Origin: Candidatus Latescibacterota bacterium
GTDB taxonomy: Bacteria; Latescibacterota; UBA2968
Reading direction: 5' to 3'
Length of the DNA stretch: 64,000 bases
NCBI GenBank assembly: GCA_965208125.1
Contig: OZ242320.1
Location: 4,800,001-4,864,000, forward strand
Below are positions 1 to 30,163 of this stretch, in pieces (position 1 is the first letter of the stretch; each line of letters opens with the position of its first letter). The notes under the pieces are model-generated. The model was not told the origin of the DNA, did not search any database, and saw nothing but the letters and a program-made list of their open reading frames with translations. The position numbers were made by a program, and so were the translations under genes.

Positions 1-1
1 G

Positions 2-256
2 ACGATAATAAACGACCTGAGGCGTTTCACGATTCACTTTGTGTATATCTCTCCATCAGAATCGGATTCCTGGGGGAGAGACAGACTGGGGACAGATAAT
101 ATTCTTGCTCCTGAAGAAAGGATAATGCTGGAACTTGAAAAGGGAACGTACGATATAAGGATCGTTGATGAGGATGGTGAGGAATACATCAAGAGGAATC
201 TGCAACTGAATAGCGATTACACCTGGCAGGTCAGGCTCTCCGATTTATCTACATAA
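2..256 (+). CDS. 3' part of a gene truncated by the window edge; small beta-sandwich-like domain (TIIND...FTIHFVYISPSESDSWG.D.LG...G.YDIR.VDEDG)
   Basis: The frame is open from base 2 to TAA at 254-256; the ORF-track start at 41 is an internal GTG. Confidence 0.7.
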   Translation, partial: TIINDLRRFTIHFVYISPSESDSWGRDRLGTDNILAPEERIMLELEKGTYDIRIVDEDGEEYIKRNLQLNSDYTWQVRLSDLST

Positions 257-394
257 GTGATGTTATGCAGCACCTGTATAGCTTGTGATTTATCGGTTTG
301 TAACGAAATGCAAATGGTCTCTCTGTGCGCTTTGAATACGATGCGGGGCAAGTCCAGACCAGATAGGACTTAACCGAAAAAGAAGGAGAAAGAA
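191..394 (+). repeat. Direct repeat copy A (about 204 bp): gene 3' end, intergenic region and RBS; copy B at 3251-3454
   Basis: aagaggaa(t/c)ctgcaactgaa...agataggacttaaccgaaaaagaaggagaaagaa is near-identical at an offset of 3060. Confidence 0.95.
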
Positions 395-788
395 CACGCC
401 GGATTTGATGAGCTATTGTGACAAGGACACCTACCCACACAAATGGATCATCGCGTATAACTTTGACAAGGCGTTAAACTACCGGTAGCCTGCGACGTCG
501 AGCAAACGGACGATTCTGAGCGCCGCGCCGGTCAACGCGCTGCTCCTTTCGGGCGGACAGAGGCCGGATGGGGAGATGTTTCTTTGGCCAGCTTTCGTAG
601 GGGAAGCCAGTCCACAGCTACCACCAGAAGGAGGCCAGTACAGGATCGGCGGGCAGGACGCGCAGGGTAGGGATCTGTTCTCCTATGACTTCGACATGAC
701 GGAGGTTGCAGACGGGGAAGGCACCTCGTCTTTTGTGTTCGCGGTTCCGGTACGGCAGGAGCTTGTATTTATACCGTTTCAAAGGTGA
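395..788 (+). pseudogene. Relic of the metalloprotease C-terminal region of a paralogue of 3456-8396
   Basis: 395-761 aligns to 7787-8147 (TPDLMSYC...FVFAVPVRQE). It has no start of its own and has an in-frame TAG where the intact gene has CAA (NYR*). Confidence 0.9.
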
Positions 789-833
789 ATCTGGCAGAAT
801 CAATAGACAATTCTAAAGAGAGGGTTTACTGGT

Positions 834-1313
834 ATGTTCCATAAATTTGCGCTTCTTGTTCTGGTTGTCTGCGTCGGTTGTGGCGACAAGGGTACAGAGC
901 CGGAGTCTCATCCTCTTGTTGGAAACTGGCGTCTGGTTAATTCGGACTTTCAGGGTCTGAGGAGGGCGATGGTGGATTACACAAGCAGGACCGGTACAAA
1001 TGTTACCGTGGATGAAAGTTTCGTCCATGTAGCCTCTATGCGCTTCAATGACGATTTTACGTGGTCCGATGATCAGGGAGAATCCGGAACCTGGAGTACT
1101 GACAGCGGCGATAGATTAACCATTACCGACTCTGAAGGCGTGAAATTGACAATGTCTTACTCGATCCAGGGCAACAGTCTGACGCTTAGTTTCACAGGTT
1201 CTGATTTTATACAGTCGGGAGCCAACAGTCTGGAAATAGCGTTCTTGCAACAAATTCTGTCCGGTCACGAAAATACGGTTCTTGTTCGTTTTGTCCTCGA
1301 GCGGTCGTCGTAA
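834..1313 (+). CDS. Lipoprotein with lipocalin-like beta-barrel domain
   Basis: Signal peptide with lipobox-like VCVGC; LVGNWRLV and GTWS..GD.LT motifs. Confidence 0.7.
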   Translation: MFHKFALLVLVVCVGCGDKGTEPESHPLVGNWRLVNSDFQGLRRAMVDYTSRTGTNVTVDESFVHVASMRFNDDFTWSDDQGESGTWSTDSGDRLTITDSEGVKLTMSYSIQGNSLTLSFTGSDFIQSGANSLEIAFLQQILSGHENTVLVRFVLERSS

Positions 1314-26580: not shown

Positions 26581-26648
26581 TTGTAGGGGTAGTACCCCTG
26601 TGCCTGTCCGCTAACGCTGTATTCTATCCTATAGGGAGGGATTGAAAA

Positions 26649-26795
26649 ATGACACGCAAGAATTTCCTTTTGATGCTCGCCTTGACGTTGCTTGTGTGTG
26701 CAAGTCAGGTGTCTGCACAGGGTCCAAGTGTGTCGCTCAGGCATGTTCCCGATGCAGGTGGCACCGAAGGCATCGTTATTTTCACCAATATATAG
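26649..26795 (+). pseudogene. Orphan 48-aa N-terminus (signal peptide) paralogous to 15939
   Basis: MTRKNFLLMLALTLLVCASQVSAQGPSVSLRHVPDAGGTEGI matches 15939-16064, then diverges and stops. Confidence 0.9.
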
Positions 26796-26806
26796 GGATA
26801 AATACC

Positions 26807-29800
26807 ATGCGCAAATATCTATTGTCCATCCCGATGATTCTGCTTTTGCTCGTCGGGGCTGCCTTTGCACAAACGGTTAATTTTTCTCTAACGGGCCTCG
26901 ACGGCAAGACATATAGTGCCTCTGACTATCGCGGCAAAGTGCTCATACTTGCTATCATCGGATATAGCTGACCATCCTGTAGAGCCGCGGGTCCGCGACT
27001 CGAAAGTTTATGGCAAGATTATAAATCAAACCCCGATGTTGCCATGCTCGGTCTTGATGCCTGGAATGGCAGTCCGTCACAGGTTGAGGCTTTTCGCACC
27101 GCTTCGAGTGTCACTTTTCCCATGCTTCTAAATGCTGGTAGTTCTGCCCCGGCCTCGTATGAGAATCTCGTTGTTGTTGGTCCCGATGGAACTGTGGCAT
27201 TGCCTGCCACGGGTAATCTGAGTTCAAGTTCTGTTACTAGCGTGAAAGCCAAGGTTAATGAACTGTTGACGCAACTACCGCTTCCTCTCGATCCCCAGCT
27301 TCATCTGGATACACAGATTGAAAGTCCTGCACAGAACAACAGTGTGCTGATCTTCACGGACAAGAGACCGGGTGATACCCTCCAAATTCAGCTTTTTGTG
27401 CCAAATGCAGCAGGGCAAAACATCCAGGCTTTCACACTCGAACTGGCCTTACAGGGCAAGACATTTACCGATTTTATCAGCAGCATATCCGGCAGTGATT
27501 GGACAGGTGGCGACCTATTCCCTGGAACATCTGCATCTAACCTCCCAACGCTGAGTGGGTTGTTTCTCAATGCTGCACCTGTGCCTATGACGGGGTATCT
27601 GGGTCAAATAGACCTTGAGGTGATCGGTGTGCTGAGCGACGAAGACAAGTTGCGCGTCACCAGTGCTTTCCTCGCTGTTGCGGGTGGGACACTACAATCT
27701 ATGGATGTGTCCGATGCGGAGGTTTCCTTTGCGCCAATCTGTCCTGGAGATTTTGACGACAATGGGATCGTCAACATGGCAGATTTTATGCTCTTTGAGG
27801 GGGTGTTTGGCACGCGGTCTTCGGATGCTGCTTACAATGCACTGATGGACATGGACAGCAGTGGGGGTATAGATGTGGCAGATTTTATGCTCTTTGTCGA
27901 TGTATTCGACACTACCTGTAAGCAACAACCTCCGGGTGATGGCGGTGGTGGACAAACGGGAGTTTCTATTCCGGATGCGAACCTTCGTGCTGTGATTGAG
28001 GACAGTCTGAGTAAGGCGAGCGGTGCGCCGATCACGCAGGCAGAGATGGCGACTCTGACCCACCTTGATGCTCGAAATAAGATGATTAGCAATTTGACGG
28101 GACTCGAGTTCGCAACCAATTTGGAAACTTTGTACCTTTCCGGCAACAATATCAAGGAATTGTCCTCGGACGTGTTTTCTCGCCTTGGGAAACTGCAAAC
28201 ACTGGATTTAAGTAGCAACCGGGAACTGATGGTGTTGCCACCCAATGTATTCGCTGGTCTCCACAAGCTTAGCTCTCTATCTTTCAGTTATACGCAGATA
28301 GAAGCGTTGCCCGCCAACGTGTTTGCCGGGCTCAACAACCTCGAACACTTATCCTGTTATTCGAATACATCACTCACGTCGTTGCCTCCGGGTATATTCA
28401 ACGGTCTCGCAAATCTCAGACAGCTGGTCCTGGAGACGAATGGATTGACATCATTGCCTTCCGGCGCATTCGATGATCTCACCAATCTGCAATCTTTGTG
28501 GTTGAGAGGGAACAGACTGACGTCGTTGCCTATGGGTGTATTCGACGGGCTCATAAACCTCGAAGATTTGAGATTGAAGAGCAATCTGCTGACTGAGCTG
28601 CCTGGACACGTGTTTTCAGATCTCAACAACCTCAAAGAGCTGAGTCTGGGAAATAATCAATTGAGCGAATTGCCCGACAACTTGTTTGTCGGCCTCAGTA
28701 GTGTTAAAAACCTCTCTTTGGACGGGAATCCGGGTGCTCCGTTTCCGCTCACCGTGGAACTCAAACGTACGGATACGACGAACGAGTTGGCGCCCGGTCC
28801 CGCCGACTTCGCGGTCAGACTAGCGCCTGGAACCCCCTTCGACGTCGATATATTGTTGTTCGTGCACAACGGCACGGCATCCGCTGCTTCGCTGACGATC
28901 GACGCAGGCGACGCCACCAGCAGTGCCTCCGCAAGTGTCACGGCCTCTGCGGGCGCGTCAGGCGCGACCGTGATCAACCTGGGGCCGGTGCCCCGGGTGC
29001 CGGGTGGATTCAGCGGCCTCGAAGTGCGTGCGGGCGCTCCGCTTGTACTGTTCTCGAAATCCGACAACCGGCAACCCGTTGCAGCAGGAAACATACCGTC
29101 CCATGTCCTTCAGGTTGGCAGCCACCAGGCCATATTGGATCTGGGAGATTACTTCTCGGATGAGGACGGCGATCAACTGTCGTTTTCAGTCGTGTCAAAC
29201 GACATTAGTGTTGTCGAGCACGGGGTGGATGACGGATCGATGACGTTGATTCCAATCAACGTGGGCGATGTCTCGGTTGGCGTCACCGCGACGGATTCTG
29301 AAGGATTCAGTGTTTCGCAGAGCATGTTCGTTACAGTGCTGCCCGCGCCGGACCCCGGTTCGTTCGACATTGACCTTGTCTTTGTTACTCCGGTCTCGGA
29401 AGAGACGCGCCTGGCCGCGCAACGGCAGGTCGAACGATGGACCGAAGTCATTAAGGGCGACTTGCCGGAGGTATCCATATCAGGCGACTTCGTCGACTGC
29501 GGGACGTGGATGAGGGGCGCCGATCATCGTTTCTTTGGGAAGGTGGACGACCTTGTGGTCTTCGTGCAAATCGCTACCATTAGTGGAGGTCAAGGACTCG
29601 GAGGTCCGTGCGGATTGCGCGATGGATCCTTCCTACCATACACGGGAGGTCTCGTATTGGACGTGGAGTCGGCGGGCACGCCTGACGGCGGAGCGCAAAC
29701 AATTCTTCATGAGATAGGGCATGTGATAGGAATCGGGACTATATGGGACAAGCTCGGATTTCTGCAAGGAAGTGGCGGGGACGACCCCCATTTCAGCGGC

Positions 29801-30163
29801 CCGCTGGCCATAGCGGCGTTTGACGCAGCGGGAGGCGAGAACTACAGAGGAAGTAAGGTGCCCATTTCAAGCGACCTGGGACATTGGGCTGGGGATGCCT
29901 TTGGTTGGGGGTACCCGCGAGAACTCATGATGGTAAGTGGCGGTACTGTTCTCAGTGCCATTACGATCCAGTCCCTGGCCGATCTTGGCTACGTCGTCGA
30001 CGTCACGAAAGCGGATCCGTTCCGGCTACCAGATGCCGGGGAGACGACCGCAAGCAAGACCGTCATCCTTCGTGACGATATCCCGAGAGGGCCAATGTCC
30101 ATCGTCAATGAAAACGGGCGCGTTCTGCGTGTCGTGGACGACGGAAACAGTTCAGATTATTGA
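26807..30163 (+). CDS. Secreted selenoprotein (1118 aa with readthrough): signal peptide, redoxin/TlpA-like domain with UxxC, cohesin-like, dockerin-like, LRR, Ig/cadherin-like, leishmanolysin (M8)-like metalloprotease
   Basis: TGA at 26969-26971 is in frame with both flanking ORFs and reads ...YRGKVLILAIIGYS-U-PSCR...; a SECIS-like hairpin follows; HEIGHVIGIG near 29708. Confidence 0.85.
26972..27013 (+). promoter_or_regulatory. Bacterial SECIS element
   Basis: GAG-C-CGCG-[GGTC]-CGCG-A-CTC hairpin at 26982-27001 with possible lower CCAT/ATGG pairing. The GGTC starts 18 nt after the TGA, the same sequence and spacing as in E. coli fdhF. Confidence 0.8.

Follow-up and report, generated by a model that had tools for sequence, protein, structure and literature searches.

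How does a bacterial symbiont come by a varied set of secreted, eukaryote-like binding proteins, and are new combinations of their modules produced by a dedicated shuffling system or by the growth of a gene family? Sponge symbionts are rich in eukaryote-like repeat proteins, and the origin of these repertoires and their retention at the cell surface are poorly understood. We examined this question in 64,000 nucleotides of a Candidatus Latescibacterota bacterium (assembly GCA_965208125.1, contig OZ242320.1, positions 4,800,001 to 4,864,000; this whole stretch is called the window, and positions are counted from its first letter), part of a closed genome in which an array of dockerin genes records the process at base-pair resolution. 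An original prediction, made from the window alone, held that five secreted genes in its first 30 kb generate new architectures by module exchange, conceptually like variable lymphocyte receptor (VLR) or polymorphic-toxin cassettes. Module exchange has indeed taken place, on a large scale and, in evolutionary terms, recently. With a probability of roughly 75%, however, it reflects the lineage-specific expansion of a gene family at a hotspot and not a programmed diversity generator; no new recombination machinery is revealed by the array.

Extent and duplication load of the dockerin-gene array

The five genes in 30 kb are present as predicted, and the array to which they belong is larger, spanning 56,451 bp with 11 dockerin genes in the gene order hemA, hemC, heparinase II/III gene, array, cobA-hemD, cohesin gene. 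The window contains only the right half. A further 26 kb upstream of it holds six dockerin genes (A1 to A6), a small cohesin gene, a LamG gene and further relics. This continuation was missed by the original prediction, as were the relic at 3020-3252, a toxin-antitoxin pair, an IS3 fragment and a TGA codon within the last of the five genes. The host genome is a metagenome-assembled genome (MAG) from sponge metagenomes, assembled as a single closed contig of 5,747,750 bp with no N, and parts of the window are present in sequencing runs labelled sponge metagenome.

Non-tandem duplicates of at least 85% identity within the array cover 47.1% of its length, compared with 0-9% when 11 stretches of 56 kb were drawn at random from the same genome. 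The duplicates of at least 95% identity are all intra-array. Self-comparison of the window yielded eight pairs of non-tandem blocks that are at least 85% identical. Near-identical heads carry unrelated tails, which bears out the claim that pairs of genes share near-identical DNA and differ in the next module. Genome-wide we counted 69 dockerin open reading frames (ORFs), 11 of them inside the array. Smaller clusters of such genes lie at 5,662,321-5,681,645 (six ORFs), 96,571-103,245 (two) and 1,576,775-1,585,728 (four), and in about half of the 69 ORFs the dockerin is C-terminal, in proteins of roughly 400-1,100 residues.

The modules named for the five window genes (g1, g2, g5, g6 and g7; Table 1), namely dockerin, leucine-rich repeat (LRR), YWTD, NHL, FG-GAP, Ig-like and zinc-protease modules, are likewise there, as judged from ORFs and Pfam. 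The dockerin family PF00404 was matched in all five, and the duplicated D-x-D/N-x-D/N-G calcium loops are visible in the dockerins and conserved in their alignment. In a six-frame search the dockerins of g1, g2 and g6 scored above the curated cut-off of 22.9 bits (39.0, 27.1 for g1, and 25.4). Across the LRR genes the LRR matches had E-values of 1e-38 to 1e-70, the Ldl_recept_b/YWTD matches of the genes starting at 3456 and 15936 had E-values of 3e-22 and 2e-42, and FG-GAP_3 was matched in g5 at E 2e-48. The repeats of g1 form a 132-bp repeat family. An open frame of 1,666 residues is encoded by g2, with a HELGH motif plus third His. The predicted starts at 1401 and 3456 hold, that at 15939 is replaced by an ATG at 15936, 21583 is the likely start within an ORF that begins at 21553, and 26807 can serve only with read-through of TGA. 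No Pfam family was found in the scan for the N-terminal 165 residues of g5, for the X module of g5 and g7, or for the ORFs at 11432-11746, L002:11324-11692 and L002:19121-19831, the last two upstream of the window.

Mosaic genes, their junctions and the relics between them

The modules comprise three head types, three LRR types, YWTD, NHL-like, FG-GAP, CARDB and PPC modules, and three protease types. Head I, a signal peptide with a g2-type dockerin, is shared at 96% identity or more by g2 (1,666 residues), A3 (541 residues) and a paralog at 191 kb (273 residues), and each of these three carriers has a different tail; on the DNA level the first 178 codons of g2 are 95% identical to A3. This head is nearly exclusive to the genome, with 8 matches here and matches of at most 68% identity in 4 of 20 relatives, and an exact 31-mer from it had no match in metagenome contigs. 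Head II (signal peptide, CarboxypepD_reg, FlgD_ig-like and dockerin) is 94-97% identical on A1, A2, A5 and A6. After this head A5 skips to a PPC module that in A1 is found 2.6 kb further along, and continues with YWTD, subtilase and a VWA domain, while in A6 the A1-type end is replaced by an A3-type LRR. In A4 the opening 84 codons of the LamG gene run on in frame into a dockerin and NHL body of the g1 type; A4 is 86% identical to g1. In g7 a 5' part encoding a redoxin takes the place of the cohesin-like module of g5; a stretch of 794 bp follows in which g7 matches g5 at 97% identity, and past this shared block LRR type and protease differ from those of g5. A domain of about 105 residues with two Cys, without a Pfam family, is repeated twice in L001:14377-18072, A2 and A6, and the order of the two copies in A1 is swapped relative to A2 and A6.

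Most junctions between such parts were abrupt, with near-identity giving way to zero similarity within 0-3 nt of shared sequence (the left junction of g5/g7, A1/A5, both sides of the relic at 394, A4, and the ATPase relics). The graded ones, on the right of g5/g7 in the LRR N-cap and on the right of g1/g2 in the first dockerin loop, lie in sequence that is still homologous. No common sequence motif was found at the compared junctions.

The paralogs have also exchanged sequence with each other. At the 229 sites where A1 and A2 differ, A6 follows either A1 or A2 in long runs (40 runs), and none of 20,000 shuffles gave so few; these long runs indicate gene conversion or crossing-over among the paralogs. 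Synonymous divergence (dS) between paralog blocks was 0.06-0.22, and that of the hemC, heparinase and cobA orthologs against the relative G008 was 0.20-0.36. As most paralog values are lower than those of the orthologs, a large part of the duplication postdates the split from the G008 species. The ratio of nonsynonymous to synonymous divergence (dN/dS) was 0.29-0.54 for the paralogs and 0.14-0.19 for hemC, heparinase and cobA: the array copies evolve faster than the flanking genes yet remain constrained.

All six relics that had been named between the window genes proved real, and several can be traced to their sources. The protease relic at 394-761 is joined straight to a copy of the g2 promoter region, with an abrupt junction at 394/395. 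One of the two upstream copies of the cohesin-gene relic sits after an intact cohesin ORF (L002:3932-4378). An intact AAA-ATPase/PD-(D/E)XK gene in the window is the source of three array relics; genome-wide it has two full copies, the three larger fragments in the array and a 43-residue match at 4.21 Mb. The dead g5 start at 26583-26777 has an abrupt right boundary. An orphan ORF with two PD40 blades has no paralog above 42% amino-acid identity. The antitoxin gene of the HTH_3 family has a 92% DNA-identical copy at about 2.11 Mb, and the toxin-antitoxin pair occupies the place that would be expected for the 5' part of an LRR gene. The IS3 fragment is 91% identical to the transposase at about 2.167-2.168 Mb, which is the one full copy. 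The array also contains DNA copied from 2.11, 2.17 and 3.58 Mb of the same genome.

Relics of this kind could be taken for the donors of a programmed or contingency locus, in which silent cassettes are recombined at high frequency into expressed genes, as in pilin variation, VLR copy choice or polymorphic-toxin tip exchange. The many near-identical blocks would be usable as homology arms, conversion tracts link A1, A2 and A6, orphan module fragments lie between the genes, and the content of the locus differs in every species examined. The fragments are, however, truncated, one of them with a stop codon, most junctions lack homology, and their contexts differ and have no motif in common. The youngest duplicates differ by 3% (dS 0.06), which means thousands of generations and not ongoing exchange. 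Pfam scans of the window plus 40 kb upstream (about 104 kb) found no intact recombinase, transposase or integrase, the sole candidate being the dead 115-codon IS3 fragment, in agreement with the original prediction that no dedicated recombinase is visible. Reverse transcriptase (PF00078) had no match in the whole genome, the control genomes being positive, and a diversity-generating retroelement was rejected for this reason; the AAA-ATPase/PD-(D/E)XK gene was rejected as a mobile driver on account of having two full copies only in the genome. Pfam scans of the array ORFs gave no toxin-tip or immunity families. Together with the population data given below, these results make a programmed locus very improbable. 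Of the original proposal, the part that module exchange built the architectures stands, and the parallel to VLR or polymorphic-toxin cassettes is not supported, given complete genes, truncated relics and no motif.

Is the mosaic structure itself an error of assembly? Mis-joins of paralogs or strains could be expected in a MAG with a repeat-rich array (85-97% identity), all the more when several related species co-occur in the same samples. The genome is, however, one 5.75-Mb contig with no N. Logan contigs with zero differences span or cover 15441-16638, 20274-21334, 21880-25363, 27278-28044, 28015-29414 and 29391-30511, the last of these being spanned over 29898-30511. Both runs that supplied these contigs belong to a single sample, possibly the source sample, and a run from another study gave contigs with 0-2 differences at five places. 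The difference-free contigs argue against mis-assembly of the chimeric junctions; stretches without contig cover count neither way. In addition, the intact genes keep their reading frame across the junctions, dN/dS is 0.3-0.5 on either side of them, and module orders reappear in closed genomes of other species. We therefore regard artefactual junctions as extremely improbable.

The same contigs bear on exchange within the population. Several junctions lie within contigs, from two studies, that match the window exactly, and no credible alternative head-tail joins were found in public contigs. Some alternative joints did occur in contigs, with sides of 21-37 nt and depths of 26-210 compared with 2-10 for the strain; their short sides and a depth far above that of the strain led us to read them as other organisms or repeats, and they were not counted as variants. 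A joint from 12088 to 30482, with 15 other letters between, was seen in runs X1, X2 and X6 at depths of 60-184. We read it as a far more abundant co-occurring relative in which the heparinase flank abuts cobA-hemD without the array.

In our best explanation the array grew by gene-family expansion in the following way. Segmental duplication copied pieces of several genes, illegitimate joins, seen as abrupt junctions, gave heads new tails or removed internal modules, and homologous recombination and gene conversion among the paralogs mixed the copies. Purifying selection retained the in-frame products, with failures left as relics. Ordinary birth-and-death evolution at a long-lived hotspot fits this pattern.

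The same site in relatives and the origin of the modules

Both flanking genes were found in 17 of the 18 other genomes drawn from the genus (in G012 cobA-hemD was not found with the query used), and cobA-hemD orthologs are present in 30 of 31 genomes. The distance from hemC to cobA-hemD was used as a measure of the site, and 8 of the 17 gaps were fetched and inspected. The gap is 58.5 kb in the genome under study (G000). It is 0 bp in three genomes, 115-585 bp in three, 1.1-1.3 kb in two and about 2.1 kb, with heparinase only, in four. G017 (3.1 kb) has an LRR end and an ATPase relic only, G007 (5.6 kb) one 1,011-residue gene that equals the front two thirds of g5, G005 (about 5.8 kb) small fragments, and G008 (13.3 kb) one 2,085-residue gene; in G018 the gap is about 39 kb with the flanking genes on opposite strands (rearranged). 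In the sister family the flanking genes are less than 100 bp apart in 12 of 12 genomes. One intergenic site, empty or nearly so in sister species, has grown here to 56 kb.

The relatives do not repeat the same architectures in a fixed order, as two of them carry another head-tail combination. The gene of G008 has the tail order of g2 (YWTD, LRR, Big_1, LRR, protease) behind a g5-type signal peptide and a g5/g6-type dockerin. The redoxin/X junction of g7 had no spanning match in 20 other genomes of the genus, all matches to the region ending before or beginning after the junction, and only the own copy spans. For the A4 junction, too, only the own copy spans among the matches listed from 21 genomes of the genus.

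An alternative to growth in place is that most of the array arrived as a horizontally acquired island from a mobile element. An IS3 fragment and a toxin-antitoxin pair lie within it, and the GC content of its modules ranges from 0.47 to 0.65 against 0.512 for the genome, which is suggestive but confounded by amino-acid composition. The protease of g6, moreover, is 70% identical to proteins of Gemmatimonadota MAGs and falls inside a Gemmatimonadota-dominated clade (support 100/100). The borders, however, show no integrase, att-like repeats or tRNA. Relatives have, at this very site, what are plausibly the ancestors of g2, g5 and the ATPase relic, pieces were copied from elsewhere in the same genome, all duplicates at 95% identity or more are internal, and head I is almost confined to this genome. 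An imported island is therefore unlikely. A foreign origin may well apply to single modules, but it does not apply to the whole array.

One candidate for a foreign module is the protease of g6. Its Peptidase_M66 match had an E-value of 2e-4 for the whole protein and 23.1 bits for the fragment (cut-off 20.6), and the Atlas clusters of the module are 74% M66. The g2 protease, at 15.8 bits, stays below the same cut-off and is 36% identical to that of g6, a divergent member. In 38 homologs of the g2/g6 module the H, E, H and H of HExxHxxxxxH, the Met and two Cys are invariant. An AlphaFold model of g6 residues 1000-1495 (pLDDT, the predicted local distance difference test, 83.7; pTM, the predicted template modelling score, 0.85) had StcE as its top match in a fold search (PDB 3UJZ, E 7e-13), followed by adamalysin-type catalytic domains. 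A PDB sequence search with the protease parts of g6 and g7 gave nothing significant and a PDB profile search gave weak zinc-site matches only; a match to the TAL effector Hax3 was discarded as a repeat artefact. By model and motif the g2/g6 module is a predicted StcE-like (M66) metzincin. The zinc motif, third His and Met-turn are common to g6 and StcE, whereas sequence identity to StcE is about 13% and the module here sits after long LRR arrays and a dockerin. The C-terminus of g7 has a HEIGH motif. Its Atlas features, an alignment-free measure, are at 0.97 to Peptidase_M8 clusters, it has no Pfam match at E 0.05, and the PDB search returned a weak pappalysin match only (E 0.9). As a lead, the Atlas features suggest a leishmanolysin-like protease.

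Among species-representative genomes, 171 relatives of the g6 module (496 residues) were confirmed, with up to 70% identity in Gemmatimonadota MAGs compared with 36% to g2. The 76 loci kept come from MAGs titled Gemmatimonadota/Longimicrobiales/Palauibacter, Acidobacteriota and Latescibacterota, and from one gammaproteobacterium. In an unrooted tree, with g2 as a long-branched outgroup, g6 and the same-genus genome G004 (95/97) lie inside the 14-row clade mentioned above, ten rows of which are Gemmatimonadota. Inspection of 13 homolog ORFs points to lineage-specific heads on the same protease tail. Four have a dockerin head, and their sources are MAGs of Latescibacterota and a single MAG that is labelled Gemmatimonadota; the homologs of Longimicrobiales, Palauibacter and Gammaproteobacteria have a lipoprotein-like Cys start and Big_2-type Ig-like repeats (by eye), and two Acidobacteriota homologs have another head. 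On one 347-kb contig of a MAG titled Gemmatimonadota (L024/L031), two tandem genes carry the Latescibacterota-type head with the Cys-flanked dockerin and group with or near the Latescibacterota rows in the tree. Either the contig is mis-binned or the genes were transferred whole.

Probable surface docking, other features and known systems

What would the heads be for? The gene after cobA-hemD encodes a cohesin protein whose C-terminal sorting domain is of the type IX secretion system (T9SS) type (Table 1). Orthologs 92.5-96.6% identical to it follow cobA in 10 of 11 loci of relatives, the 11th locus being cut. This cohesin is more conserved across species than cobA-hemD (92.5-96.6% against 76-94% amino-acid identity), and its gene invariably follows cobA-hemD in the loci seen. 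The genome has seven cohesin (PF00963) matches, five of them above the cut-off. Three of them belong to the array or its border: a small ORF located between A3 and A4, a decayed copy of it, and the gene after cobA-hemD. At 2.27 Mb two neighbouring proteins of 1,606 and 2,154 residues end in the same sorting domain; the first has a Pfam cohesin, and two six-frame cohesin matches lie in the frame of the second. A SprA homolog is also encoded in the genome.

In the mechanism that these data suggest, the array proteins would be exported and would then plug by their dockerins into cohesin proteins with T9SS-type sorting domains, so that the displayed eukaryote-like binders and StcE-like or leishmanolysin-like proteases would face sponge cells or matrix, and selection at the host interface would drive their turnover. 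Display of host-binding modules and proteases on surface cohesins is the likely function. Tentatively, we extend this to an idea that we hold to be possible but rather doubtful: the array could be the variable cargo store of a T9SS-anchored cohesin-dockerin surface organelle, of a kind not described in the literature searched. Sponge-facing binders and mucinase-type proteases would be rapidly reshuffled, with the conserved flanking cohesin as their holder; the heads would adapt foreign tails to the docking system of the host cell, and recombination at the hotspot would be frequent enough for strain-specific repertoires.

A number of points weigh against these readings of the array and its products. 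Binding of dockerin proteins to surface cohesins is inferred from sequence, and a Sec signal peptide alone accounts for no crossing of the outer membrane. The signal peptides were assigned by eye (charged start, hydrophobic core, small residues ahead of the cut). The dockerins of g5 and g7 scored 21.5 bits, below the cut-off of 22.9; they align with the g6 dockerin at 61% identity with every loop position conserved. The putative cohesin module of g5 was called from 43% identity to one paralog whose corresponding part matches Pfam Cohesin. A dN/dS below 1 over whole blocks is compatible with positive selection at single sites. Our population evidence consists of Logan contigs, which lose rare variants, and frequent recombination within the population could escape them; the comparison with relatives used one genome per species. 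Among the sequencing runs that hold parts of the window, no RNA run is listed.

Two features of the array concern single genes. For g7 to start at 26807, an in-frame TGA at 26969-26971 has to be read through; otherwise the ORF begins at 27044 and lacks a signal peptide. With TGA read as U, the N-terminus matches AhpC-TSA at E 6e-13, and the codon falls at the position of the first redox Cys in a U-x-x-C context. Two redoxin paralogs, 65% and 30% identical, have TGA in the same column, and a fourth member has Cys. Hairpins begin 11-13 nt past the TGA in all three TGA-containing genes, with a fold z-score of only -1.4, and tRNA-Sec, SelA and SelB are encoded in the genome. From these sequence features the g7-type redoxins are a probable family of secreted selenoproteins. 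One other member of the redoxin family (open frame of 1,631 residues) has a C-terminal dockerin. Upstream of g5 lies a gene for a sigma-54 activator with a Reg_prop/Y_Y_Y sensor, which has two paralogs at 3.58 Mb (80-85% identical). The exact sigma-54 site between it and g5 has no counterpart in the 400 bp ahead of any other gene start checked (15 in all, from the array and its flanks); window-wide there are 10 such sites against 5.6 expected, which is not significant. An HSP20 gene has a second exact site at its start (50600-50614). Outside the array, a low-GC patch at 44001-46392 (0.39 against 0.51) contains a methylase fragment-like ORF (44045-45052) and a 389-residue ORF without a family name, and a PIN-domain ORF lies nearby at 46798-47250. 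The patch is possibly a small restriction-modification or defence islet.

Table 1. Coordinates of the array genes, relics, shared blocks and neighbouring features (window positions unless marked as genome positions).
Feature	Position	Strand	Evidence or remark
Copy of g2 upstream region and ribosome-binding site	191-394	+	97% identical to 3251-3454
Relic: predicted StcE-like protease, C-terminal part (last ~120 residues, g2-type)	394-761	+	88% identical to 7786-8147; in-frame stop
Shared block, g1/g2 start regions	1368-1508 = 3423-3563		94%
g1: signal peptide, dockerin, ten 44-residue NHL-like repeats	1401-3011	+	Pfam NHL E 2e-20, Dockerin_1
Relic: small cohesin gene, 3' end and downstream flank	3020-3252	+	97-98% identical to two upstream copies
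g2: signal peptide, dockerin, LRR, YWTD propeller, LRR, Ig-like (Big_1), LRR, predicted StcE-like zinc protease	3456-8396	+	Pfam, module map
Toxin-antitoxin pair: HTH_3 8603-8887, Gp49/HigB-like 8941-9318	8603-9318	-	HTH_3 E 1e-12; PF05973 E 1e-21
Relic: LRR-gene C-terminal cap	9219-9482	+	65-68% amino-acid identity to A3/A6 ends; DNA 83-85%
AAA-ATPase_like + PD-(D/E)XK gene	9517-11298	-	Pfam E 7e-64 and 2e-22
IS3-family transposase fragment, integrase core only	11379-11916	-	Pfam rve E 1e-18 (ORF 11569-11916, 115 codons)
Second copy of heparinase-gene downstream flank	11957-12143	+	93% identical to genome 4773830-4774018
Sigma-54 activator with Reg_prop/Y_Y_Y sensor	12327-15512	+	Pfam
Exact sigma-54 -24/-12 consensus match	15697-15711	+	225 bp ahead of g5
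g5: signal peptide, putative cohesin-like module, X module, dockerin, LRR, YWTD, LRR, FG-GAP, PPC-like end	15936-20774	+	Pfam, module map
Shared block, g5/g7	16413-17206 = 27278-28071		97%, 794 bp
Orphan ORF with two PD40 propeller blades	20771-21139	+	Pfam PD40 E 2e-18
Relic: AAA-ATPase/PD-(D/E)XK gene, 3' end and flank	21185-21398	-	86-90% identical to 9504-9601 and upstream relic
g6: signal peptide, Cys-flanked dockerin, plant-type LRR blocks, predicted StcE-like zinc protease	21553-26040, likely start 21583	+	Pfam
Relic: AAA-ATPase gene, middle part	26139-26579	-	87% identical to 9922-10362; tblastn residues 311-461
Relic: dead g5 5' end (signal peptide and ~25 residues, then stop)	26583-26777	+	88% identical to 15873-16067
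g7: signal peptide, AhpC/TSA-type redoxin, X module, dockerin, LRR, Ig-like, candidate leishmanolysin-like zinc protease	26807-30163	+	Pfam, Atlas
cobA-hemD fusion gene, right array border	30411-31970	+	Pfam TP_methylase and HEM4
Cohesin protein with FlgD_ig and Por_Secre_tail (T9SS-type C-terminal sorting domain)	32074-32880	+	Pfam Cohesin E 5e-5
g7 redoxin paralog	genome 862416	-	
g7 redoxin paralog	genome 640667	+	

The value of the locus lies in what it joins. In-frame chimeras are kept here and failed ones persist as scars, binders are linked to cohesin-dockerin docking with a conserved neighbouring cohesin gene, and one protease module is common to symbiont phyla under lineage-specific heads. 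Testable predictions follow, namely the pairing of dockerins with cohesins, StcE-like cutting of sponge glycoproteins, and strain differences at the site.

Clostridial cellulosomes and non-cellulosomal cohesin/dockerin modules are known cohesin-dockerin assembly systems. As in the clostridial cellulosomes, there are many dockerin-tagged secreted proteins (69 ORFs) and few cohesin proteins (seven matches, two of them in one open frame of 2,172 residues), and the pair of X module and dockerin recurs in g5 and g7. The cargo here, however, consists of LRR, YWTD, NHL, FG-GAP, CARDB, S8, VWA and metzincin modules and not of carbohydrate-active enzymes, the dockerin is mostly near the N-terminus, and the cohesins end in a T9SS-type sorting domain and not in SLH or sortase anchors. 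By its sequence features the array would thus resemble a docking system without being a cellulosome. Polymorphic-toxin loci (Rhs and contact-dependent inhibition, CDI) and lamprey VLR likewise combine a conserved 5' part with variable 3' parts and have fragments between genes. Unlike the toxin loci, the array has no toxin tips and no immunity genes, and its decayed fragments lack a shared homology box; unlike VLR, all of its genes are complete with their own starts, with no incomplete 'germline' gene and no deaminase. In distinction from both, change is seen between species and not within the population. Birth-and-death families of surface LRR proteins such as the Listeria internalins also have tandem paralogs, domain gain and loss, gene conversion and pseudogenes, whereas the array has 11 genes in 56 kb with at least 15 module types, heads of a docking system, and one cross-phylum protease module.

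Like the eukaryote-like proteins of sponge symbionts, the array genes are secreted and have eukaryote-typical repeats. ANK, LRR, NHL, SEL1, TPR and WD40 domains were reported from 10 sponge-associated Latescibacterota MAGs (PMC12993501). That paper tallies domains; its text has the words 'Dockerin', 'cohesin' and 'selenocysteine' 0 times and describes neither the hotspot nor mosaic paralogs nor a dockerin tag. By title or abstract start, our literature search returned no relevant paper linking dockerins with sponge symbionts, Poribacteria or Latescibacteria. Expanded and mosaic families of surface proteins are of a known kind, as are the eukaryote-like proteins of sponge symbionts and cohesin-dockerin docking; their combination, and its record at the level of single bases, is new.

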